Notes: generated by a model from the sequence alone, not told the origin. Shown: positions 1 to 38,974, counted from the stretch's first letter. The stretch is 64,000 nt of DNA from a virus (IMGVR_UViG_3300042389_001739:15723-79722); one strand, 5' to 3'. Made by a program: numbers and translations.

Positions 1-988
1 CCCCCTTGGTGCCCTGCGTCAGATCCACCTCCGCCAGCACGTTGTTGGTCAGCTGGTCCCGAATCGCGGCGCTGATGTCCGCCGGACTGGTTACCGTCGA
101 GATACTGGCGGCACCCATGACACAGATGCCGTTATCCAGCAGCTGCGCCAGCTCACTGCGGTCAAAGGTAATCAGCGGACTATGTACGGCCGCCAATTGG
201 TTGAACAGGTGAAACAGCAAGCTGATCGTGTTGTTGGCCACCGGATACAGCTGGGTCATACCAGGCTTGTACAGTGCGTTAATTCGCGCATTGTCAATCA
301 GGATCAGCGGACTGACCTTGAGCTCCAGCAGTTTCTGGAAGGCCGTGACCGCATTGCGACAAACCTGCTGTCCTTCGTTTGGACTGGGAATCGAGGCGAT
401 CACACCTACCCGTGGTGGTTTACCTTTGGATTCCATGTATTGCCGGGCAATCTGCACCAGCTTAGCCGCCGTACCGGAACCGGTGCCGCCGCCCAGCCCA
501 ACACAGATCAGACCGTAATCCATATTGTTACCCCAGGACCGCTGCAGCAAATCCCAGATTTCTTCTTCGTGTCCGCTCAGGCTCTGCTCGGCAAACCGGG
601 CGTCCTTGGCAGCACCACCCAGCTGCAAGGTGTGCCGCTGAATTTCTTCCGGCAAACCTTGAAAATCACTTTCGGCGGTGTTGAATAAACCGACGCGGCG
701 ATACCCCAGCCGGTGAAAGCTGGCAGCCAGTCGTGCGCCTCCCTGGCCTGAACCCAAAAACGCCATATTAAATGCAACGTCATAAGGGAACTGATCGTCC
801 ACGACAACCTGCGTCATGGCTTGCCGGTGTGACCCTGGATGCAGCGTCGCCGCCACATTACCGATCGGAACCACGCCTGGCGGTGGTGCGGCCACTGGAA
901 TTACATTCACTGCTTCTGGTTTCGGCTTTCGTTTACCGGACGCTTGATCCAGGGATTGAGCCAGGCGGGCATTCAGATCGTCACTCAT
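1..988 (-). CDS. Tubulin/FtsZ-family GTPase (PhuZ/TubZ-like), 3' end beyond window; absent from the ORF track
   Basis: Manual translation from ATG at 988 (ATGA overlap with upstream stop), open to the window edge: FLGSGQGGARLA (T1), FNTA (T2), GGAAKD (T3), CVGLGGGTGSG tubulin signature (nt 473-493), IPSPNEG (T5), LIDN (T6), TFDRSEL (T7-like). Confidence 0.93.
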   Translation of the reverse strand, partial: MSDDLNARLAQSLDQASGKRKPKPEAVNVIPVAAPPPGVVPIGNVAATLHPGSHRQAMTQVVVDDQFPYDVAFNMAFLGSGQGGARLAASFHRLGYRRVGLFNTAESDFQGLPEEIQRHTLQLGGAAKDARFAEQSLSGHEEEIWDLLQRSWGNNMDYGLICVGLGGGTGSGTAAKLVQIARQYMESKGKPPRVGVIASIPSPNEGQQVCRNAVTAFQKLLELKVSPLILIDNARINALYKPGMTQLYPVANNTISLLFHLFNQLAAVHSPLITFDRSELAQLLDNGICVMGAASISTVTSPADISAAIRDQLTNNVLAEVDLTQGTKG

Positions 989-1575
989 CGACTGTTCTCG
1001 CATAAAGACTTCAGGGCTTCAAACCGCAGATTCCTGACGTCCGTATTTGTCATTGGGAAAATCTGCGGAAACTGTTTACGCTGTTCATTGTACCGTGCGA
1101 TATAATGCTGCCGTATAGCTTTTAGCTGGTCCACCGTATAACTTCCTTTAGACCAGTGGGACAAAACCGTCAAGTCTTCCGCTTCCGTGGCTTGTATATC
1201 GACCACGATTGCGGCAACCGGGCGCCAAATCTCCAGAAACGGTGGCAAGGTCGGTGCGGAGATGACTACCTTGAGTGGAATCACGTCTGTAAACCGCCGA
1301 ATAAACTCACTCGGCCCTGGGTACGGTATCTCGTAATAGACCGGCAACTGATCGGAGAGCGGATGCACGTTGGCTTGTACGCAGATCGCTTCGTGAATCC
1401 GCTGTGCTTCAAAGTTTTGGTAATTTGTTTCATAAACGTGTCGCCCGTTGGCCACATCAATATCCTGACCAGGCCAAAGGACAGACCAACCCTGCTGCAA
1501 AAGATACTTTGAAACATAATGCGTGTAGGCTCCAGGCGTCCCGGCAATCAGCACATTGTCGGTATGATGCTTCAT
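985..1575 (-). CDS. Divergent sulfotransferase-like protein
   Basis: N-terminal VLIAGTPGAYT resembles the 5'-PSB loop (GxxRSGT) but lacks R/S; later segments NFEAQRIHEAI and APTLPPFLEIW resemble bacterial sulfotransferase motifs; lies in a glycosyltransferase cluster. Confidence 0.4.
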   Translation of the reverse strand: MKHHTDNVLIAGTPGAYTHYVSKYLLQQGWSVLWPGQDIDVANGRHVYETNYQNFEAQRIHEAICVQANVHPLSDQLPVYYEIPYPGPSEFIRRFTDVIPLKVVISAPTLPPFLEIWRPVAAIVVDIQATEAEDLTVLSHWSKGSYTVDQLKAIRQHYIARYNEQRKQFPQIFPMTNTDVRNLRFEALKSLCENSR

Positions 1576-2636
1576 CGCATAAATTCCTGCTGCAGAAATT
1601 CTGCAAACTTTTGTTGTCGCTGCCGCAGCACGATAACGGAAGCTGCTTGTAATTGTTGTAACCAGGTTTCAGATTTAGCCAATACCATATCTAGCGTGTC
1701 TCTGACATCCTGCTGCTGCAGTTCAGCCACAGGTAATGGCTGGTATAAAGTCTTACACGGTAAAAGCACGCCAGTCTTTGTTGCCATAATGTGTTCAGAT
1801 GCCGGAGAAACGTTTGCTGTAATCACGGGGGTTGTGCCCGGGAGTAACGCGGCCAGCGTCGAACCATACGGATGACGAGTGCTGACCAGATAAGTCCAGT
1901 CGCAGTTTCGGGACAGCTGCGAGTATTTTGTGTAATCGGGTTTCAGGTGTAGCTGGGTGCGCGGGTGCTGTAACAAAGTCTTCAGCTGCTTGCGATACGT
2001 TTTAGATAGCGATCGTTCCATTAAAAACTGAAGATGCAATCCGGAATACTGCTGCAACAATTCATTAAATAACGGCAAAAAGTTGCGACCGAGATCCCGC
2101 TCAAGTTGTTGTGGCAGCACCACCAGCAGGCTGGTTTGATCCTGACGCAGTCGTCCGTAACGACCTTGCAACACTTCTACCGGCGAAGTCAGCACACCCC
2201 AGGTTCGCTGCGTCGTGTTCAATCCGTACCGGTGATCGAGCCAATCCGCCATTTGACGCGAAAAGACGATGGTACGATCCACCGCTTGCAGAAAATCTTC
2301 GTGTTGCGTCTGCCAGGAACCCCAGCGAGGGAAGAATAAATGGCGGGTACGCCGACGACGACTACTGGTGGTTACCAGCTGCGCCTCGGCAAAGGCAAAA
2401 TGACTGGGCTCAAACCAGCACAAATGTGTACAACCATAGGCCCAGTTATAGACCTGCTCCGGTTTAAGCGCTCGCACCACTTGCCGATCCCAATAAGGAT
2501 GAATGTTGCGCGAAACCACACCATCCGACAAAAACCTGACTTTGACGCCCAGCCGCAGCAGCCAGTCCGCCAGCATCGTAGCGGCCAATGCGGCTTCGCC
2601 TCGAACATAGTTGACATAAATGCCTACTGTCAGCAC
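1572..2636 (-). CDS. Putative GT-B fold glycosyltransferase (divergent)
   Basis: 354 aa; two Rossmann-like halves, DRTIVFS and YGSTLAALLPGTTPVI resemble GT4 motifs; neighbours are GTs. Confidence 0.5.
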   Translation of the reverse strand: MLTVGIYVNYVRGEAALAATMLADWLLRLGVKVRFLSDGVVSRNIHPYWDRQVVRALKPEQVYNWAYGCTHLCWFEPSHFAFAEAQLVTTSSRRRRTRHLFFPRWGSWQTQHEDFLQAVDRTIVFSRQMADWLDHRYGLNTTQRTWGVLTSPVEVLQGRYGRLRQDQTSLLVVLPQQLERDLGRNFLPLFNELLQQYSGLHLQFLMERSLSKTYRKQLKTLLQHPRTQLHLKPDYTKYSQLSRNCDWTYLVSTRHPYGSTLAALLPGTTPVITANVSPASEHIMATKTGVLLPCKTLYQPLPVAELQQQDVRDTLDMVLAKSETWLQQLQAASVIVLRQRQQKFAEFLQQEFMR

Positions 2637-2654
2637 GCCCAGCCTCCGGAAAAT

Positions 2655-3359
2655 TCAGGCCGGATGCGGTACAAAATCACAAAATCCAGATTTTGCGCGA
2701 CAGCCCGGCATAGTATAGTACCGCTGTTTTAAGCGCCACGCGACATAATTAAAACTGAGTTGATCCCGATAACTGTGATTTTCGATCTGCTGCCACCAGT
2801 ATTGGTTAAAGGCTTGAATAAGTTCCGTCGATTTACGCACCAGACAAGCCGTCTCTACCAACCCGTGATACGTCGGGTAACCTTCTGCCTGGTAACGCTG
2901 CAGCTGCTGCCGCATCAGTTCCGCGTTATCTTTGCGAAGGCGGATACAAGCCTGCAGTTCCTGATACACACAAACCCGCTGCGGATGTTTAAACGTAGCC
3001 AAAGTGCACCTGGCCGGTAGCAGATCCAGCAGTGTCGCCCGCAAACTCACCGGTTTAAGCCGCTGCGAACCATCCAGCCAAACCGTAATGTCTGCCTGAT
3101 CGGGTAATAAATGCGTATTGATTTTGTGCCAGCGGGCTGTGCGTCGACGGCACATCGGGTGCTGCCAGACGAGTGGCTTTAATTCCCAGTCCAGGTAACC
3201 CGTTGCCCGTCGCTGCGGAGTTGTCACCTGATCCGTATAGATCAGGTACCGGATATCTAATTCCGGGAGCATTTCCGAGGCCAGCAGCGAGCGTTCCAAC
3301 TGATCATAGTGTCCGGTTACACAGCTATAGACTAAGACGCTGGGCATTGGCGATACCAC
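2655..3359 (-). CDS. DUF616 (MUCI70/TOD1-like) glycosyltransferase; start possibly ATG at 3347
   Basis: VYSCVTGHYD, ARWHKINTH, VWLDGS, KHPQRVCVYQE, RDQLSFNY motifs. Confidence 0.85.
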   Translation of the reverse strand: MVSPMPSVLVYSCVTGHYDQLERSLLASEMLPELDIRYLIYTDQVTTPQRRATGYLDWELKPLVWQHPMCRRRTARWHKINTHLLPDQADITVWLDGSQRLKPVSLRATLLDLLPARCTLATFKHPQRVCVYQELQACIRLRKDNAELMRQQLQRYQAEGYPTYHGLVETACLVRKSTELIQAFNQYWWQQIENHSYRDQLSFNYVAWRLKQRYYTMPGCRAKSGFCDFVPHPA

Positions 3360-4143: not shown

Positions 4144-6042
4144 TTACACTCCAAACTGCTGCTGCATCATCATCGCACCTCCCTGGGTGCGCGCTGACTG
4201 ACGAATCTCATCCATCTTTGCCCGCGTGATCGAGTGCAGCGTCGGGTTCCACTGGCGCAGTTGACGCAGCTGGGAATCCTTTACGGACTCAGGTAGGCCC
4301 AGCAGTTCGCTGGCCAGCTGCGAAGCGGCGGCTTGCAGATCGTTCGGTGTGACGGCGGCGTTAGGTCCCATGTTTTGAATGTAATCGGATACCGGTGCCA
4401 TCGTCGCACCACCCATACCGGGTTGCGGCGGCTGTCCGCCTGCCGGTGCCCCTCCCTGGTTAGGATCTGCCGGTGCACCACCTCCGCCTGCAGGTGCCAT
4501 TGGATTGACCCCCTTGGCGACCTGTGCGGCAAACCCGGACTGTTCCATCAACTCCTGGTTGCGTGCCTGCATTTCCTGCTGTTTACGCGCTTCGTCGGCA
4601 ATCCGTTTCTGTTCGGTTTCCCAGTCGTAACCGATTGCGGCCAGGCCTGACGTACCGGAAAGCTGTTGCCCCATCATCAGCTGCAGCGCAGACATCTGTT
4701 TCTGGACATCGTCGGCAATTGTTACACGCTTGAGGCTGGCCTTTACCGGTTCCCAGCTCTTGATCCGGCTGATGCTGCTTACCATCCACTGCACAAACAA
4801 GTTAGCGTCGCTCACCAATGGGCGGTGAGTGCTTTCAAACAAGCGCAAACCGACCGGTGCGGCCTGCACTGCCATGCTGCCGTTATAAAAATCCACCGGC
4901 GTGCCTGCTTCATTGAGCAAGGTTTCGTAACCCTGCTGAATCAGCTCGGTCGGTGCCAGTTGTTTGGCGTCACCGCCCAGCACCTGATAGTTCACAGGAA
5001 AGGGTAGCATTTGCCAGCTGGCCGGATCACGTCGTCGGCGATTGATCATATTACGCACCTGGGCGCGAAAGTCCCCGGCGGCATAAATCGACATCGGGTC
5101 CTGGGTGGAGATACCCCCGGCAGCTGTTCCGTTACGACTCTCGGGTGTGATCAGTCGAAACGGAATCACGTAGTCCATGGCGATGGCTTCATTGAACCGC
5201 CGCAACACCTGGACATACCAAATCTGGCGGTAGTTCACCAGGCTCCGGGGAATTCCCCAGCCCATATTGCGAATCCCAGCCAGGGTCGGCTCTTTCATAT
5301 GAAAAATTGCGTCTTTGTTAAACCGAAACAGCTTGTTGTAGCGCACCGCTTCCAGCACCTGCTTACTGGCGCGTTCAAGATGGTAAAGATTACCTTCGCG
5401 CACCATGCGCTTGTAATACTCAGGAATACGCCAGAGATAAGCCACTTCGTCCGTGTACGGATCGTGCAGCAATTCCATCTCGTGCGGATTCCATCGCTTT
5501 AAAATCAATTGATCTGATTCTTCTCGTGGTTTGTCTACGACCTGCCAGGCACCACGCCAGCCGGTTTGAGGACAACTGGCCACAAATTCAAAATCACCAT
5601 TGAACTCAAAATTAAAGTTGTCGTAAACCACTTTAAGTGGATACATCGCGCCAGTCTTAGGGCACTGCAAATACCGCCGAAACGGCACCATCACACTGGC
5701 GAACCCGTTACCATAGCATAACCTGTCCCGCAGCAACTGCCCGAGAAACGTGGTGGCATGCAGCGTGTCGTCCAGAAAATCTTTGTATTTTTTCTTCTCG
5801 TCATCGTTGGCATCACCGCCCAGCTCAATATCAGTCACGAAGTAACTGACCAGGCGTTCCATCGCCATCCGGTATGTACCCTGTACCATCCAGATATATT
5901 CCGACCACCAAAGCGCTGAGCGCATCGTGGTCGGCATCTGCGTTGTGGCAATGTCGTTAAACGGATCAGCAAATCCTACATCACCGGAAGCCGTGGCGGC
6001 TCCGCGGTTAAAAAACGGACTACTGGTACCGTACAGGGACAT
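4144..6042 (-). CDS. Probable phage portal protein
   Basis: 632 aa; CYGNGF, KRWNPHEM, IFHMKE...GWGIP portal-like motifs; coiled-coil then Gly/Pro/Gln low-complexity tail typical of large-phage portals. Confidence 0.65.
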   Translation of the reverse strand: MSLYGTSSPFFNRGAATASGDVGFADPFNDIATTQMPTTMRSALWWSEYIWMVQGTYRMAMERLVSYFVTDIELGGDANDDEKKKYKDFLDDTLHATTFLGQLLRDRLCYGNGFASVMVPFRRYLQCPKTGAMYPLKVVYDNFNFEFNGDFEFVASCPQTGWRGAWQVVDKPREESDQLILKRWNPHEMELLHDPYTDEVAYLWRIPEYYKRMVREGNLYHLERASKQVLEAVRYNKLFRFNKDAIFHMKEPTLAGIRNMGWGIPRSLVNYRQIWYVQVLRRFNEAIAMDYVIPFRLITPESRNGTAAGGISTQDPMSIYAAGDFRAQVRNMINRRRRDPASWQMLPFPVNYQVLGGDAKQLAPTELIQQGYETLLNEAGTPVDFYNGSMAVQAAPVGLRLFESTHRPLVSDANLFVQWMVSSISRIKSWEPVKASLKRVTIADDVQKQMSALQLMMGQQLSGTSGLAAIGYDWETEQKRIADEARKQQEMQARNQELMEQSGFAAQVAKGVNPMAPAGGGGAPADPNQGGAPAGGQPPQPGMGGATMAPVSDYIQNMGPNAAVTPNDLQAAASQLASELLGLPESVKDSQLRQLRQWNPTLHSITRAKMDEIRQSARTQGGAMMMQQQFGV

Positions 6043-19039: not shown

Positions 19040-19691
19040 TGTTACTCCTAGTGGGAATATAGTTCACAATCTCATCTACAATCCGCTCTGGTTCAACCAG
19101 CGCGTTGTCTTTAACGCAGCAAATTCGCACCGATTTTACGGTGGGTTGATATTCTATCAGACGATCCCGGTAAAAAGCATTCACCTTTTCCAGAAGCGTC
19201 CGATCACGCTCATGCACGTCCAGTTTGCCGTCACGTTTTGCAACATTTTTTATTGCAAAATCCACCGGCATATCCAGGTAAACTAAAAGATCCGGTACGG
19301 GCAAACCAAACGTACCGTGTTCCAGTTTATCCAGGTATTTCAATAACCGATCCTGTTCTGCTCCTTCCGTTTTTGCGGCCAGATAGGCCAGGTTTGAGGC
19401 GACATACCGGTCCACAATCGCGATCGACTGTCCGTCTGCCGCCGCCTGCAGCTGATGCTGATCGGAATCAAATCGATTGATTGCCCACAGGGTACTACAA
19501 AACTCGGGAGTAATCGCCTGATGATACTTGTTATCCAAAATACGGCGAATCAACTGACCGCTGGCTGATTGATATTCCGGATACTTGACTACATACACCG
19601 GTAAACTCATTCGCTGGCGCAAACGCCACAATAAACGGTTAGCCGCGGTGGTTTTACCAGAACCGTCAATTCCCTCCAGATTAATGATCAC
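19032..19691 (-). CDS. tmk: Thymidylate kinase
   Basis: LEGIDGSGKTT, DRYVASNLAY, PDLLVYLD motifs. Confidence 0.93.
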   Translation of the reverse strand: MIINLEGIDGSGKTTAANRLLWRLRQRMSLPVYVVKYPEYQSASGQLIRRILDNKYHQAITPEFCSTLWAINRFDSDQHQLQAAADGQSIAIVDRYVASNLAYLAAKTEGAEQDRLLKYLDKLEHGTFGLPVPDLLVYLDMPVDFAIKNVAKRDGKLDVHERDRTLLEKVNAFYRDRLIEYQPTVKSVRICCVKDNALVEPERIVDEIVNYIPTRSNNG

Positions 19692-22600
19692 GCTTTGCCT
19701 TTCCGCTTACGCCATAGCTCATAGGACTTGTCCTCCAGGTTTCGTTGTGGTCTGACTTTGGTTGCCGCCACGATCGATCGTTGCGGCTTTGTTGGGGCAT
19801 CTTTGCTGTACGTTACCACACAACCCTCCGCCCCGCCGTGTCCGGTCGGCAGGCCGCGTTCTACCGCCTCGGCATAAACTAGCTTTTCGCCCCAATAGTT
19901 CATCACCTCGGCTTCGATACCAAGATAATACGGACCGTCTCCTGTCGGAATCCCCTCCAAAGTACTGGGGTAAATCGGCACGGCCTTCCGCATGTAAGTC
20001 GGCAAAACATATTCGCAGACGTGTTTAACGTACCTGTCCGGCACTTCCAATAAAATGGCGTCATGAATCTGCAGCACGACGTTAAAGAGATTATGCCCCT
20101 TTTTAGCCTGGCGTAGCTTGTAATCATAAAGATAAGCCAACGCACGCGACACCGCACTGGCGATCATGGACTGAATCGGGAAGTTCATGGCTTGGCGCCC
20201 AAACTCCGCCCGCAGAGCCTGATCCCGACTGGAATCCGGAAACCGCCGGAAGCGGCCGTAGCAGTTACAAAGCCAGCGACTTTTAACTTGTTCCTGCGTG
20301 TTTTCGTCCGTGTAGGTACCTGCGGCCCGGTCCTGACACTCCTGAAAGAAAGGTCGCAGTTTAGGATACATTTCGAAAATAGCGTTGATCACGGCTTGCG
20401 CTTCATCAACAGAAATGTCAATTTTCTGCTCCTTTGCGGCCACGGCAATCGCCTTAGCCCCTCGCCCGTAGGCGATTCCGAAAATCACGGACTTGGCCAC
20501 AATCCGGATATGCTTTTTGCCAATGGCTTCCAGCCCACTTTTGGTGGGCGGACACTGCAGTTTAAAAGCAAAAACCGCCACATTGCTGTGGATGTCGTAG
20601 TAATCCGGATGATCTTCCGGCAACTGATTCCGCTGCGCGTGCGCAATCATATTCGGATCACCCGACATTACCGCCATCCCGAACAGTTCGGCGCCGACAT
20701 AGTCGGCTTCCACCAGCACATGTCCCGGTGACGCTTTAAGCACGCTTCTCAGACTATATTTGTAATGCTCGCCAAGCAACCGCTTGTAGTCCGGATCGCG
20801 TTGCTTGGAGATATTCTGCAGATTCGGTCGAGCACTGGACCAACGGCCAGTTTCCTTAGTCTGATAAATGTGGGTTCGTACTTTACCGTCATCGCAAACC
20901 AGTGAAGCCAACCCATCCTCGTATTCCATGTAACCGTCTTCGTTGTACTTTGCCTCCTCGGTCTTGTCGTCACGGCTGGGCGGACGCAGTACTGTCTTTA
21001 ATACCTGATCAAGAAACCGATAATCCCGCAGCATGTCGATCAGACGCGCCTGATGCTCGTGTTCGGCGTCTTGTGCCAGTAGCGACAGCGCCTGTTTATT
21101 GGTAGAAGGCGAGTGGTTGTACTCCTGCTGCTGTCGCTTAATCTCCAGCCAGGGTCGCGGTGGTTTGGAGGTGTCAAAAACCGGGGTCAGTTTAAGCGAA
21201 GTTGCCCCTGGTGGTCGAATCTTGACCTCTTTCCCGGTTTCCTTGTTAATCCGGCCGTTGAGTTTTTCTCCGAATAAAAACTCCCGAACGTGCTGTGTCG
21301 AACGCACGTTGAACTCTGGCCAGTTAATTTCCGCTTTAAGTCGATTTTCCAGGTCTGCCCGTGCGTCCATAAACCGGGCCGTAAGAAAATCCACGCGGGA
21401 GCGGTCGACCATGATCCCGGTGCGGTGAATTTCCAACACCGCCGGGGTAGCAATCTGAGATTCCCAAAAGGCCTCCCGGCAGTTATTACCTTCGTAATCT
21501 TCATCCAGCAACAAGTCGAATTTGTAGAACAACCGCAAGGTTACGTCCGCGTCGTACATACCGTACGGCAGAAGAATTTCGTCAGGGCACATGCCGTACC
21601 CTTCGAGATCGCTGCTGCTCAGACCCTGCTGGCGACAGTAATCAATCTTCCACTTATCCAGCTCCCGGTCATAACGCGGTGCAGTGGTGTAACGCATGGC
21701 AAGCGTTTCCAGATTGTACTTGGCCGTCTCCTCGATAGCATGTGCCATCAAACCAGTGTCAGCACCGCCCTCGTATTTGGTGCGATACCAGGCGGGAACA
21801 ACTTCACCCGCTTTGAAACCATCCTCCGCATACAACTTATGCAGCTTGGTGCCAGGCACCAGCGTGTAGTCGTAGAGCGGTGCCATGAAACATTCCTGCA
21901 GGTCGATGCCATAATCAACCAGCCACTCCAAGTCCGCGTTAAAGAAGTGCCCAATCACGCGTTTGCGGCGAAATTCAACAGCACCGTTTGCATGCTCGTA
22001 ACGGCCGCCCTTGAAAAAAACGTTAAGGAGTTTAATCGTTTCCTGCAAAATACCGCGTGCATTGGTTTCCTGCGGTGTGCCGCAAAAACCAAGCGTTACG
22101 TCACCCCCGGCGTCATGCAGTTTGATCCCGATCGCATGTTTTGGTCGCCAGGCAAACTGAATTGTGCGCATGTAGGTGTCGTGGTTGACCGGATGCTGAC
22201 CGTGCCACTCCGCATCCACCGCAATCACATCGTCAGACTTTTCAGGATCCTGCTCGATGTTTACCAGCAGATCAAACAACTGTGCGTGATTATCGACCAC
22301 TACGTGATTGACCGTTTCGGTTTCGCCTAAATCTGCGCCTCGCAGCAAAGCCGCAAACCGGGCTAAACCACTTTCCAGCTGACGGAGTGCGGATTGATCA
22401 CGGATGACCTGTTTGGGATGGACCACGGTAATGACTTTGGCTTCCTGCCAGCTGGTTTCAGCCAGTTCCGCAGTGTACGCCGTGTTATACCGAAAAGTAC
22501 CAACTTGACCCAGCATATCCGTAACGCTGGCTTGCGGACCAAGTATGGCTTTACTGGCATCTGTGCCCAGACAGAGAATGTACTTGGGCTGTACGATTTT

Positions 22601-23254
22601 AATTTCCTGCATCAACAGGTGCATGCCGTCGTTGACCCAGGAAGCTTTTAACGTTGTCTTGAAGTTTGGGGGCTTAAACTTGACCAGGTGTGTCAGGTAA
22701 AAGTCATCCAGCCGCTCAATCTTCAACCGCTGCATTAAATCGAACAGGAGCTCGCCGTCTGCGTCGCTGAGGCAGGCTTTATACTCCAGTTCCGTATCCC
22801 AGGGGTTTTTATTGATAATCATCACGCGTGCGGGGCGAGGTCCCGCGATGTCCAAGTGTTTAAGCGATTGCCCTCGCAAGTGACCCGGTAAAAACTTTGC
22901 GATTTTTTCCTGATGCGGTCCGACTTCCACCGGCATGGAAAAGTCGACCGTCCGCAATGCCCGCTGAATCAGGCGCTGCAAATCTTCGCTGTACTCCAGC
23001 TGCCGCACCTTTTTATCCTGCGCGTTTTTAACCTCTACAATTTTGCTCTTAGTGTCACCCAGCGCGTTGACGTGCGAAACAAATGACGAATTGGGGGGCA
23101 GTACCGGCAGTCCAGGAGCATCCAGCGGAAAGATTGCGTCGCCCGTATGCATTGCCGCAATACGGGCCGCCTGGCGCTGCTCTAGCAGCAGCGTATTCTT
23201 TACAGGCGGTAAACTACCGTCCCGCATTCCTTTCAATTTACGTGGCGGAATCAT
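19688..23254 (-). CDS. polA: Family A DNA polymerase with N-terminal uracil-DNA-glycosylase-like domain and 3'-5' exonuclease
   Basis: UDG4-like THLVKFKP, EIKIVQPKYILCLG, VVHP; exonuclease VDAEW, GHFFNAD, YGMYDAD; polymerase TGRWSSARPNLQN, ADYVGAEL, KSVIFGIAYG, NFPIQS, QIHDA. Confidence 0.95.
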   Translation of the reverse strand: MIPPRKLKGMRDGSLPPVKNTLLLEQRQAARIAAMHTGDAIFPLDAPGLPVLPPNSSFVSHVNALGDTKSKIVEVKNAQDKKVRQLEYSEDLQRLIQRALRTVDFSMPVEVGPHQEKIAKFLPGHLRGQSLKHLDIAGPRPARVMIINKNPWDTELEYKACLSDADGELLFDLMQRLKIERLDDFYLTHLVKFKPPNFKTTLKASWVNDGMHLLMQEIKIVQPKYILCLGTDASKAILGPQASVTDMLGQVGTFRYNTAYTAELAETSWQEAKVITVVHPKQVIRDQSALRQLESGLARFAALLRGADLGETETVNHVVVDNHAQLFDLLVNIEQDPEKSDDVIAVDAEWHGQHPVNHDTYMRTIQFAWRPKHAIGIKLHDAGGDVTLGFCGTPQETNARGILQETIKLLNVFFKGGRYEHANGAVEFRRKRVIGHFFNADLEWLVDYGIDLQECFMAPLYDYTLVPGTKLHKLYAEDGFKAGEVVPAWYRTKYEGGADTGLMAHAIEETAKYNLETLAMRYTTAPRYDRELDKWKIDYCRQQGLSSSDLEGYGMCPDEILLPYGMYDADVTLRLFYKFDLLLDEDYEGNNCREAFWESQIATPAVLEIHRTGIMVDRSRVDFLTARFMDARADLENRLKAEINWPEFNVRSTQHVREFLFGEKLNGRINKETGKEVKIRPPGATSLKLTPVFDTSKPPRPWLEIKRQQQEYNHSPSTNKQALSLLAQDAEHEHQARLIDMLRDYRFLDQVLKTVLRPPSRDDKTEEAKYNEDGYMEYEDGLASLVCDDGKVRTHIYQTKETGRWSSARPNLQNISKQRDPDYKRLLGEHYKYSLRSVLKASPGHVLVEADYVGAELFGMAVMSGDPNMIAHAQRNQLPEDHPDYYDIHSNVAVFAFKLQCPPTKSGLEAIGKKHIRIVAKSVIFGIAYGRGAKAIAVAAKEQKIDISVDEAQAVINAIFEMYPKLRPFFQECQDRAAGTYTDENTQEQVKSRWLCNCYGRFRRFPDSSRDQALRAEFGRQAMNFPIQSMIASAVSRALAYLYDYKLRQAKKGHNLFNVVLQIHDAILLEVPDRYVKHVCEYVLPTYMRKAVPIYPSTLEGIPTGDGPYYLGIEAEVMNYWGEKLVYAEAVERGLPTGHGGAEGCVVTYSKDAPTKPQRSIVAATKVRPQRNLEDKSYELWRKRKGKA

Positions 23255-34615: not shown

Positions 34616-35172
34616 TATTTGTCCTCGTCAACGTCGTCAGGGGGTTCAAAATGAAAGTCAAAAGCATCCAACTCTTCGGCATCTACTATTTTAATATTTT
34701 CCGCCCCAAACATTTTCTGAAAGAACGAGATGATCTCTTTCTTTTTCGACTTTATCTGTTTCTCCGCGCGAGCTTCGCGTGTCTCGTGCGGCAGGAACGC
34801 CTGTGACAGTAGTGCCTCTCCGGCGTGGACCAGGTTAATTCGATGAAAAATAGCGGCATCAGAGCTCCACTCGTCCTGAGTTTCATAGTTACGAACGACC
34901 TCGTCGTGTCGTTCCCGAATGGCTCGCAAAATCGTATAGGACAAAAACATGTCCGGAACAGACAGGTTTAGGTAACGTTCCACGCTGTTAGGCCGCGGAA
35001 CAAGTAGTGGAACAAACGGCGTATCCGGCGCGCCCAGACGTTCCGCTTCAATGTTTGCCCAGTCTCGCTGGTCTGCCACCCAGTCATACAGCTCCAGCAG
35101 GCTGTTAAACAGCAGCGAAGGACTGGTGTTCTTACGGGGAAAGGGAGGGGAATAGATCGAATTGTCGTTCAA
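34615..35172 (-). CDS. Hypothetical protein
   Basis: 185 aa, AGGAG ribosome-binding site, acidic tail. Confidence 0.7.
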   Translation of the reverse strand: MNDNSIYSPPFPRKNTSPSLLFNSLLELYDWVADQRDWANIEAERLGAPDTPFVPLLVPRPNSVERYLNLSVPDMFLSYTILRAIRERHDEVVRNYETQDEWSSDAAIFHRINLVHAGEALLSQAFLPHETREARAEKQIKSKKKEIISFFQKMFGAENIKIVDAEELDAFDFHFEPPDDVDEDK

Positions 35173-35173
35173 G

Positions 35174-35962
35174 TTAATCTCCTTTGTACTTGTTTACCCG
35201 GTACATCCGGGTTTTTTCTGTGAAATGGACCATTTGCTGGTAATGAATCAGACAATCCTGGTTAAGAATCACCAGCCAGTCCAGCTTACCAAGGTCAGTC
35301 AAGGCATCCAGTAGTGTCGTATCGCTTGCGTCCGAAAATATCTTGCTGGCCAGCGGCGGATAGAACTCAAAAGTATGAAAAACCTTCTGATCCGTTTTCG
35401 GTATAAGCTGCAAGCCACAATGTTGCAGCACCAACTCGCCTTTAAGATTAATCACCGGCGTCGCAAATTGCACCGTTACGTGTGCCTTCAGCAAAACATG
35501 AGGACCTCTGCGAGAATCGAAAAAAGGCAACGATGCCCCAAGCGGCCAATGCCTCTTCCAGATCGCTATGCAACTGGCGTCACGCACATCAGCTGGAACC
35601 TGCATGATCGCATCATACATGGGCCTGATACGGCTGCGTACGTAACACCATGGGCACGTAAGAGGGCGATTGCACACCCGCGAGCGTGGTCTCATGTAAA
35701 AACCAAGCGGCGGACAGTGCATGCGGTACGTGTACTCCAGCCGCTTTTCCGGACTGCACTCTATCAACCGGTAATACTGCTGGCGTAAACGCTTCTGCAA
35801 GTGTGCTGCCTTGGTCAGGTCAGTCTTCTGGTGCGATTCATAATTCGCTGGCAGCACACATCGACGTACCAGGTCAAGGTCTAAGGATTCCTTTACTTTT
35901 AACAGCTTCGGCACGGTTTTAAGTGTCGGGTAGCTTGTGTCGAAATCAGGGGTTTTACCCAT
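35174..35962 (-). CDS. Zinc-finger protein, possibly a Rep/IS91-like initiator remnant
   Basis: C-x13-C-x5-CPWC (HCPP...VCNRPLTCPWC) resembles the N-terminal Zn knuckle of rolling-circle Rep and IS91 transposases; AAGGAG ribosome-binding site. Confidence 0.5.
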   Translation of the reverse strand: MGKTPDFDTSYPTLKTVPKLLKVKESLDLDLVRRCVLPANYESHQKTDLTKAAHLQKRLRQQYYRLIECSPEKRLEYTYRMHCPPLGFYMRPRSRVCNRPLTCPWCYVRSRIRPMYDAIMQVPADVRDASCIAIWKRHWPLGASLPFFDSRRGPHVLLKAHVTVQFATPVINLKGELVLQHCGLQLIPKTDQKVFHTFEFYPPLASKIFSDASDTTLLDALTDLGKLDWLVILNQDCLIHYQQMVHFTEKTRMYRVNKYKGD

Positions 35963-36059
35963 TGAAATCTCCTTCGGTTATAACGGGGGTGCTAAACCGC
36001 AAAATCGTAGCAAAATTAACTGTTGTTTAAAATAGTTGGTAACTTTATCAAACATAAGC

Positions 36060-36415
36060 GTTTATAAAAAATATCAATTTTGTTGAGATAAAGTTACGTT
36101 ACTGCTGTCTTTTTCCTACGGAAAAGACAGAATGTAAGGCTTTTAAGAGCCTTACATATGTTCAGTATAAAAAGATAAATTAAAATAGATTATTAACTAT
36201 TCACGGCGGCCCTACTGGGCTAGTCGCAGCTAACTTGGTTGTTTGCTCTGATTAACCCCACAGGGCACGCCGTAAATAGATGGTTCTTTATTTGTTTTTA
36301 TTTTTATTAAAACATAACAAGCGTTTCTATCAAACGCTTGTATTCTATCTTTTCCGTAGGAAAAAGATAGCAGTAACGTAACTTTATCTCAACAAAATTG
36401 ATATTTTCTATAAAC
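36060..36415. repeat. Large AT-rich nested inverted repeat (74-bp arms), candidate replication origin or cis-acting site
   Basis: 36060-36133 is the reverse complement of 36342-36415 with 3 mismatches; internal hairpins are symmetrically placed; longest non-coding gap in the window. Confidence 0.9.
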
Positions 36416-36493
36416 TTTTTTGATTATGTAATTTAGCCGCTGTTTATCGCAACAGGTAAATTACAGAGCCTATCAGCTTAATTATGCGCGATG

Positions 36494-36775
36494 CTAGGTA
36501 GCATCAGGTGTACTTTGGCTGATCGCAGCTATCACCTGTTCTGGTAGTATGCTTTGAACTGTCACGTGCTTTTCTTCATCTGCTATCTTGCCTTGCCCTG
36601 CAGCCTGGAGCGTATAGATCAAGGCTGCGCCCAGTAGTGCTAACGCCTTGATGTGCGACGGGTCAGGCACAGCACCACCGTAGAGGTCCAGGTTGCACAG
36701 GCACCTGGTTTCGTCATCAACGTCGCTGAACTTGGCAAATACGTTCTCTGCCAGCTGGTAGTATTCACAACTCAT
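36494..36775 (-). CDS. Hypothetical protein
   Basis: 93-aa ORF. Confidence 0.55.
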   Translation of the reverse strand: MSCEYYQLAENVFAKFSDVDDETRCLCNLDLYGGAVPDPSHIKALALLGAALIYTLQAAGQGKIADEEKHVTVQSILPEQVIAAISQSTPDAT

Positions 36776-38444: not shown

Positions 38445-38666
38445 TTAACTGGTTAAAAGTTTACCAAGCTGATTCAGCGTTTCCACTGGTAAATTTAATT
38501 TTGCTATATTTTGCTTCAGCCACACTATTGTTTCTGGCTTGCTCGCGTCACAGCGTTCCCTCGGTATCTGTGGTAACGAGATTAACAACGATTGCAGTGC
38601 TGCCTGGTGGCGATGTTTTGCATTTTGCCTTTTATAGAAAACTGTTTCTTTTTCTTTTATATTCAT
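38445..38666 (-). CDS. Hypothetical protein
   Basis: 73 aa, ATGA-coupled to the alpha-CTD gene. Confidence 0.6.
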   Translation of the reverse strand: MNIKEKETVFYKRQNAKHRHQAALQSLLISLPQIPRERCDASKPETIVWLKQNIAKLNLPVETLNQLGKLLTS

Positions 38667-38974
38667 ATTTCTTCTTTAATTGGCAGTTTTAGCTCTACAA
38701 GGAGTTGTCTGCATTTTTTCATGGTAATTTCTCCCAGGTTAGGGATTTCCGCCAATTCGTTTAACGATACTTTGGTTAAATCACCAACCGTCAAAATTCC
38801 GTACTGTTCCAAGTTATTTGCTAACCGCACTGGAATACCGACGTCCGTTAACGAAACCGTGTGCCAGTATGCGATCCGCTGGTTTTCCCGGTCTGTTGCT
38901 GTGTAATACTTAGCCCAATAAGGCTCCGGTTTGCAACGCCTCTTGCGTTTGGCAGGGCCTCCATGCTCTTCCAT
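38663..38974 (-). CDS. Stand-alone RNA polymerase alpha subunit C-terminal domain (alpha-CTD) protein
   Basis: LTDVGIPVRLANNLEQYGILTVGDL...ELAEIPNLGEITM matches alpha-CTD LSVR..N.L....I..IGDL....L..PNLG.KS. Confidence 0.85.
   Translation of the reverse strand: MEEHGGPAKRKRRCKPEPYWAKYYTATDRENQRIAYWHTVSLTDVGIPVRLANNLEQYGILTVGDLTKVSLNELAEIPNLGEITMKKCRQLLVELKLPIKEEI

Follow-up and report, generated by a model that had tools for sequence, protein, structure and literature searches.

The 64,000-nt stretch of viral DNA analysed here (the window; bases 15723-79722 of the 79.7-kb IMG/VR viral contig IMGVR_UViG_3300042389_001739, ~38% complete by CheckV) contains a 356-bp paired-arm element that is real, conserved and single-copy, with a layout of a new kind. 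It precedes the gene for a 262-aa Zn-ribbon protein of a new family, the first gene of a replication/recombination operon. On the basis of its observed anatomy, its conservation in relatives, its single copy per genome, its variable cargo and its matches to consensus motifs, we tentatively read it, at somewhat less than an even chance, as a transcription-boundary cassette that would enclose a small transcription unit; for this cassette we infer promoter and terminator activity, the transcribed strand and an arm-binding protein.

The sequencing runs containing the stretch are lake-water metagenomes. Every gene from position 1 to ~42 kb lies on the minus strand, among them those for PolA, a DnaB-like helicase, an SF2 helicase, a UvsX-like recombinase, SbcC and SbcD. 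A 531-bp gap (35963-36493) is mostly filled by the palindrome at 36060-36415, with an AT-rich cluster of small ORFs upstream and, downstream, the 262-aa ORF that opens the minus-strand operon of SbcD, SbcC, helicases, the DnaB-like helicase and PolA. No tRNA or tmRNA was found by ARAGORN or Rfam, and neither the region nor SbcD matched cultured phages (blastn, tblastn). The family-A DNA polymerase (19688-23254, minus strand) carries an N-terminal domain of the uracil-DNA-glycosylase superfamily (Pfam UDG, E 2.9e-13). The 93-aa ORF upstream of the palindrome (36494-36775, minus strand) is 58 aa long in 7/7 other members of its protein cluster and in the contig L007 described below, and the real gene there may comprise the last 58 codons only.

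When 36060-36415 is aligned base by base against its reverse complement, most of the anatomy described in the initial annotation is borne out. The arms are complementary at 71 of 74 positions, with mismatches only at 36067/36408, 36107/36368 and 36128/36347; positions 36107 and 36128 are indeed pairing partners in a left-arm hairpin, CTGTCTTTTTCC-TAC-GGAAAAGACAG, the right arm having CTATC...GATAG; two inner hairpins with 10-bp stems of differing sequence are present, as are an A-rich tract (36158-36196) and a T-rich tract (36281-36316). The core is closed by 36197-208/36269-280 as proposed, but it folds as a single nested imperfect stem-loop and not as three separate stems. The features referred to below are as follows.

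35153..36769, unstranded: 1.62-kb module of small ORF, palindrome and 262-aa gene, common to the window and L007
35174..35962, minus strand: gene for the 262-aa Zn-ribbon protein, new family, first in the replication/recombination operon
36004..36012, minus strand: extended -10-like TGcTACGAT followed by TTTGCGGT (36012-35996), found by eye, ~40 nt upstream of the 262-aa gene
36039..36049, minus strand: third copy of the 11-mer GATAAAGTTAC, the other two lying in the arms at 36087-36097 (plus) and 36378-36388 (minus)
36060..36133, unstranded: left, gene-proximal arm, 74 nt, no change in L007
36083..36111, plus strand: mirror copy, in the left arm, of the right-arm promoter-like site, second hexamer TGTCTT (G at position 2), read from the sequence and below the scan threshold
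36105..36130, unstranded: arm-internal hairpin a2, left (pyrimidine tract, 3-nt loop, purine tract)
36132..36157, minus strand: inner hairpin A, terminator-like in the gene direction, tail TCTGTCTTTT (scan)
36158..36316, unstranded: cargo between the inner hairpins, without an ORF
36197-36280: GC-richer core within the cargo
36317..36341, unstranded: inner hairpin B, terminator-like on either strand (scan)
36342..36415, unstranded: right, gene-distal arm, 74 nt, 13 clustered differences in L007
36345..36370, unstranded: arm-internal hairpin a2, right, CTATC...GATAG version, of which L007 retains the upper 7 bp only
36364..36392, minus strand: promoter-like site in the right arm, facing inward in the gene direction, TTGAGA-17-TATCTT with TG (9/12 + TG)

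The whole element folds far better than shuffled sequence: the energy is -114.8 kcal/mol for DNA (z -19.2) and -191.2 kcal/mol for RNA (z -21.4), values equalled by 0/100 shuffles in either case. No second inverted repeat of such size occurs in the 64-kb window, and the arm sequences are absent from the 79.7-kb contig outside the palindrome locus. The 11-mer GATAAAGTTAC, a candidate protein-binding site, has three exact copies in the contig, all of them inside a 350-nt span.

An assembly fold-back can be set aside as vanishingly unlikely. The 208-nt interior between the arms is non-coding, unique and asymmetric, a contig from a 2020 run spans 35841-36359 collinearly with the window, homologous elements occur in relatives, and a further copy with a diverged right arm comes from another assembly and sample. 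This copy was reached through a 20-mer of the arm, for which L007 was the one matching record in 185,579 species genomes; the 20-mer had no match in metagenome contigs, nor an arm 23-mer in 2.9 million viral contigs. L007 is a 6769-nt contig assigned by binning to a Lake Mendota MAG of the Isosphaeraceae, and its bases 1215-2830 correspond to window positions 36769-35153 at 98.2% identity. The rest of L007 has no relationship to the window, tblastx included, and the neighbours of the module there are genes for a ParB-like nuclease and an HsdM N-terminal domain, not phage replication genes. L007 may represent a mobile element linked to the host, or else phage sequence that was binned wrongly; its binning hints at a planctomycete host, which is likely for the phage, and among 401 planctomycete genomes searched the 262-aa protein family occurs only in the MAG holding L007. 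A MITE or dispersed palindromic repeat is not supported, as arm words had no copies beyond L007 in the contig sets and species genomes searched, from which near-identical records may have been withheld.

The differences between the two copies are unevenly spread. Positions 36021-36201 (181 nt, left arm included) are free of differences, whereas 36202-36416 (215 nt) holds 24, arranged as multi-base patches. The 13 in the right arm cluster at 36344-48, 36356-61 and 36400-09 and leave 36362-36399 unaltered. Because they all sit in the right arm and the left arm is identical, the arms of L007 are far less complementary to one another, and its right-arm hairpin loses the lower 4 bp with no compensation. 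The gene-distal half of the element is thus hypervariable between copies that are otherwise 98-99.7% identical. The contig X6 carries window-type sequence to 36359, yet the L007-type base at 35873.

Comparable structures occur at the equivalent locus in relatives whose family proteins are 30-40% identical. The paired arms again stand upstream of the Zn-ribbon family gene, first gene of the replication/recombination operon, which is followed by a ~180-aa ORF, a ~108-aa ORF and, further on, SbcD:

L021 arms: 55 nt, 91% complementary, 429 nt apart, ending 117 nt before the family gene; protein ~40% identical
L014 arms: 64 nt, 97% complementary, 253 nt apart
L009 arms: 46 nt, 93% complementary, 379 nt apart
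L010-13 arms: 46 nt, 83% complementary, 681 nt apart

Across whole records (G000, G402, G403 and G404) the arms are confined to one locus, in two inverted copies. L008 and L017 have the family gene and no paired arms within 3 kb, and the L016 locus is cut by the contig start. The distant SbcD-based loci L003-L006, which are too remote to weigh, show no inverted repeat of at least 30 nt within 10 kb. Locus search worked with a smaller family alignment, the larger one being too diverse; a search with the 262-aa protein alone returned no viral or metagenome contig, near-identical records possibly being withheld, and a sliding 300-nt fold window does not span the larger elements of the loci.

Arm sequences vary by lineage, and the arm hairpins are retained via two-sided changes. 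The L021 hairpin reads ATCTTCTCC-TAT-GGAGAAGAT vs TCTTTTTCC-TAC-GGAAAAGA in the window, and of the 6 consensus pairs that RNAalifold gives for hairpin a2, 3 have changed on both sides. The type TATC-Yn-TAC/GTA-Rn-GATA is innermost in the L014 arms (TATCCTC-TAC-GAGGATA) and is also present at L016, where the same pyrimidine-loop-purine form reads TATATCTCT-GTA-AGAGATATA. With a stem of at least 7 bp, such hairpins occur only at these loci in the 247 kb searched, the other matches being two 6-bp TGTCCT...AGGACA. By sequence comparison the L021 element is clearly homologous to that of the window: L021 4820-4846 shares an AAGGC/GCCTT core with inner hairpin A, its flanks changed on both sides, and L021 4404-4431 shares with inner hairpin B the stem base ACAAGCG...CGCTTGT, the upper stem differing. 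An 'AAGTT' half-site common to the lineages was discarded as too short and frequent a motif. Just past the right arm of L014 (2354-2545), a strong promoter-like TAGACA-18-TACAAT with TG precedes ~170 nt of structured non-coding sequence, at the end of which stands a terminator-like hairpin (GGCCCCGATGCGTAATTCGGGGCT) trailed by TTTGTTT. This stretch may be a small RNA or a leader, and no Rfam family matches it.

The interior is far less constant. At L021 it includes a 77-aa ORF with a ribosome-binding site (AAGGAG, 7 nt upstream), at L009 a 67-aa ORF with GAGGAG and at L010 two ORFs, all running the same way as the family gene. From L009 to L010/L012 the cargo is swapped within conserved arms. 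Arm spacing ranges from 208 to 681 nt across lineages. Because the stretch between the arms varies and carries ORFs in relatives, a conserved giant fold-back is unlikely as the functional form. One large non-coding RNA or cruciform as the conserved unit, which had been among the initial suggestions, likewise does not hold up, given the 13 uncompensated one-arm changes in L007 and the one or two ORFs that the arms flank in relatives. Nor does a centromere-like site for the tubulin: the tubulin/FtsZ-family gene (2-1003, minus strand, running on upstream in the contig; Pfam Tubulin, 40.8 bits, 430-aa frame) is 35 kb away, leaving that idea unsupported, and no iteron or direct-repeat array was found.

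Differences between the arms of one genome hit paired hairpin positions in three independent cases: G-C vs A-T in the window (36107/36128), ACGCATAA/TTATGCGT vs ACTCATAA/TTATGAGT in hairpin a1 of L021, and CTACAC/GTGTAG vs CTACTC/GAGTAG in the inner hairpin of L009. Such placement implies that local hairpins or dyads are kept and that arm-to-arm pairing is not. The original interpretation, selection on structure rather than simple duplication, therefore survives in its second half, simple duplication being inadequate, but selection need not be the sole source, as template switching within quasi-palindromes perfects them and can yield 'compensatory' changes without selection (PMC7202029).

This mutational route is central to the view that the structure is recombination-driven and has no function of its own, to which we allow a slim chance. 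The arms would then be an inverted duplication homogenised by gene conversion together with quasi-palindrome template switching, the 'compensatory' changes would be mutational and not selected, and the locus would be a hot spot for gain, loss and inversion of small ORFs, like inverted PeSL cassettes; PeSL motifs shuffle cassettes in T4-type phages (PMC2839356, PMC4122927). The swapping of cargo among close relatives with arms retained, the multi-base patches, confined to one half of the element, that separate the window from L007, and the UvsX-like and SbcCD proteins of the phage all agree with it. So does a Logan contig (run X3) that joins 36067 to the reverse complement of 36407-36260, linking the left flank to an inverted interior. 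This join is no proof of inversion, however, because the 39-nt identical stretch exceeds the 31-nt assembler word: it may be a true isomer or a k=31 graph path, the two being indistinguishable, and the full assemblies of the window and L007 agree in the orientation of the interior. Moreover, arms of equal internal layout persist in lineages with 30-40% protein identity and unrelated arm sequences, which is hard to explain without function.

The function that we favour, that of a transcription boundary, would work as follows. The cassette would separate the early small-gene cluster from the replication/recombination operon. Each arm would be a composite of an outer promoter/operator-like segment and then a pyrimidine-loop-purine hairpin, with a GC-containing hairpin sitting immediately inside it. 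The arms would jointly halt transcription coming from the early genes and would enclose a short slot that is transcribed separately: in the window this slot would be ~235 nt, non-coding and read on the minus strand from ~36357 to ~36122, and in relatives it would carry one or two small ORFs. The 262-aa gene would have a separate promoter ~50 nt downstream of the cassette.

Several sequence features are consistent with this scheme. A consensus scan finds terminator-like hairpins with 10-bp stems at 36341-36317 (minus), 36157-36132 (minus) and 36317-36341 (plus), and terminator-like sites are enriched regionally (22 vs 11.6 +/- 3.0 in shuffles). For the outward-reading hairpins, the arm hairpin supplies its pyrimidine strand as the T-rich tail of the inner hairpin, so that putative terminators point outward on both sides, and the layout of L021 is equal. 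The right-arm promoter-like site (36364..36392), a consensus match only, is preceded by an AT-rich stretch, and in L007 the 38 nt over it are unchanged, with variable patches on both sides. In its left-arm mirror copy the difference between TGTCTT and TATCTT is the 36107/36368 mismatch, which is also part of the 'compensatory' pair. Both arms of L009 carry an inward-facing TTCACA-17-TATTCT with TG. Against the scheme, the arms of L021 and L014 have -10-like hexamers only and sigma-70-like matches are not enriched regionally (11 vs 11.9 +/- 3.1 in shuffles); the consensus may not fit the likely planctomycete host.

A promoter of the operon itself is probably represented by the extended -10-like TGcTACGAT-TTTGCGGT, which the scan missed because it has no -35 match. 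L021 has TGcCATAAT-TTTGCGGT at 4947-4963, in the equal relative place, giving the common motif TGc(T/C)A(C/T)(G/A)AT-TTTGCGGT.

The phages of the window and its relatives encode sigma-like and alpha-CTD-like genes of their own. A free-standing homologue of the RNA polymerase alpha-CTD is encoded at 38663-38974 (minus strand; Pfam RNA_pol_A_CTD, E 1.1e-9, 38.3 bits vs a cut-off of 23.8), within the early small-gene cluster upstream of the window palindrome, and at L021 such a homologue directly precedes the palindrome, ending 16 nt before it. L021 also encodes, at 1982-2815 (plus strand), ~1.5 kb upstream of its palindrome, a 277-aa protein with a sigma-70 region 4 domain (E 9.6e-8). Judging from these genes, phages of the L021/window type probably redirect host RNA polymerase.

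Against the transcription-boundary reading, it fails to explain why arms of 46-74 nt are kept as an inverted pair, it leaves the co-variation of the arm hairpins unexplained, and L008 and L017 have the protein gene without the arms. Metatranscriptome contigs from a ~96%-identical strain lie on flanking genes only and have no bearing on transcription of the element.

Action at the level of RNA is an explanation to which we assign a low probability. Read-through transcripts would fold the arms into a long duplex, or the hairpins would be processing or stability signals, or the 356 nt would form one structured non-coding RNA. RNase III-type sites between T7 early genes provide a model for processing signals. 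The very strong folding of either strand suits an RNA (the predicted transcript 36357-36122, minus strand, folds with z -11.0 and its plus-strand mirror with z -10.1), as do two imperfect pairs, one in L014 hairpin a1 and one at the base of L021 a2, both G-T on the strand read inward, and a closing stem of the core that has G-U on the minus strand vs C-A on the plus strand, and A-U in L007. Yet arm-to-arm pairing is broken in L007 by one-sided changes, the internal terminator-like hairpins should block read-through, and Rfam 15 returned nothing at gathering score (best E-value 0.22). No single strand accounts for both L021 hairpin loops, because the a1 loop has the same orientation in both arms and the a2 loop is inverted.

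The main rival explanation, a replication origin paired with the neighbouring Zn-ribbon protein and its weakly Rep-like fold, we rate only a little below the transcription boundary. The hairpin arms would be binding or unwinding sites for the protein, the AT-rich tracts would melt, perhaps activated by transcription from the arms in the manner of the T7 primary origin or T4 oriF/oriG, and origin and initiator gene would travel as one module. Its appeal lies in the setting and symmetry of the element, which is single-copy in every record looked at, including the 172.7-kb G404 (84% complete by CheckV), heads the replication module directly upstream of the Zn-ribbon gene in the window and in L021, contains AT-rich tracts, and forms with that gene exactly the part shared (98%) with the otherwise unrelated L007. 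The arm hairpins, with conserved TAC/TAT loops, read inward from both sides, a symmetry that fits a two-sided DNA process, and their pyrimidine-tract type is restricted to palindrome loci in the 247 kb. Other features of the DNA run counter to an origin, namely arm spacing of 208-681 nt with intervening ORFs, the lack of iterons, and the loci L008 and L017 with no arm pair. A bidirectional origin had been proposed initially, with GC skew as a check; cumulative skew is monotonic through the element and shows no inflection there or at the equivalent site of G404, although this test is weak because nearly all genes are on one strand.

The protein itself gives mixed signals. Its family comprises ~70 clusters at 50% identity, with C83, P85, C97, C103, W105, C106, Q165 and R255 invariant in a 40-sequence alignment, and has no sequence match in Pfam, PHROG or PDB. 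The AF2 model (pLDDT 91) matches unnamed viral proteins in BFVD (E 2.8e-5 to 7e-4) and named Microvirus replication initiators at E ~5e-3 (TM 0.3-0.47), and the protein atlas directs it to Rep_1 clusters. In PDB it matches HUH Rep endonuclease domains at Z 5.2-6.8, scores equalled by GGDEF and other ferredoxin-like folds and under the noise guide of the tool. Against these structural matches, an HUH motif is missing from the 40-sequence alignment, where 'GPHxW' retains H155 alone, and neither an acidic residue nor a Tyr is invariant (Y79 is present in at least 90% of sequences; a C-terminal Tyr is present in about 70% and replaced in about a quarter); the Pfam models Rep_1, Phage_GPA and REP_ORF2-G2P have no match in the contig at E <= 10, and profile-profile comparison with gokushovirus (Microviridae) initiators by hhalign gave a probability of 0.17%. 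In the most specific form of the origin reading, which we think less likely still, a clade of large freshwater phages would possess a portable origin-initiator module made up of the palindrome and the Zn-ribbon protein, the latter being a catalytically remodelled descendant of a rolling-circle Rep that recognises the paired opposite-strand pyrimidine-loop-purine hairpins and starts or licenses replication of a ~200-kb dsDNA genome.

To our knowledge, neither the control of genes nor the start of replication has been described for these uncultured lake phages (contigs of 45-205 kb). The element supplies a defined, conserved, single-copy cis-site together with a candidate partner protein from a new family, and its arms offer clean natural two-sided changes in DNA hairpins with which selection can be separated from template-switch mutation. 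If it is an origin, Rep-like initiators would extend to large dsDNA phages.

Among known systems, invertible promoter segments such as fimS and the Bacteroides invertons likewise place inverted repeats around a few hundred bp upstream of an operon, and one contig here has an inverted interior, which is uninformative at k=31; in contrast to them, no site-specific recombinase was identified near the element and the arms are far longer than usual crossover sites. The oriV of RSF1010 contains two single-strand initiation hairpins, ssiA and ssiB, on opposite strands inside a large inverted repeat. The resemblance, two inverted hairpin signals read on opposite strands with non-critical spacing, is purely one of analogy, as no iterons and no RepB'-type primase were recognised in the window phage.

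Hairpin origins served by HUH Rep proteins include the dso of rolling-circle plasmids, those of Microviridae, the geminivirus stem-loop and the AAV ITR. As in these, a nested palindrome adjoins the gene for a protein with a Zn-ribbon and a ferredoxin-like domain and weak Rep-fold matches, and the hairpins of the window element have conserved short loops; unlike them, the 262-aa protein lacks HUH and catalytic Tyr motifs and any HMM or profile match, and the genome is that of a large dsDNA phage with its own replisome. The T7 primary origin and T4 oriF and oriG combine a promoter with a downstream AT-rich unwinding element. The element shares with them its place at the boundary of early and DNA-metabolism genes and a promoter-like sequence with AT-rich tracts after it; the phage also has a polymerase of the PolA type and a DnaB-like helicase. 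It differs in its paired inverted arms with nested hairpins and in showing no GC-skew signal.

For the transcription-boundary reading, the instructive comparison is with the PeSLs, composite promoter-terminator cassettes of T4-type phages that mediate cassette shuffling (PMC2839356, PMC4122927). In both cases a short conserved unit joins a sigma-70-like promoter with an AT-rich upstream part to a stem-loop terminator (both being, in the lake-phage element, consensus matches only), and flanks small ORFs of unknown function in a variable region whose cargo differs among close relatives. PeSLs are, however, present as many direct copies per genome, whereas the lake-phage element is one inverted pair at a fixed locus, with arm hairpins that co-vary. 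If it is indeed a boundary cassette, it would be the inverted equivalent, restricted to one locus, of the PeSL cassettes, to which the shuffling of genes in T4-type phages has been attributed.
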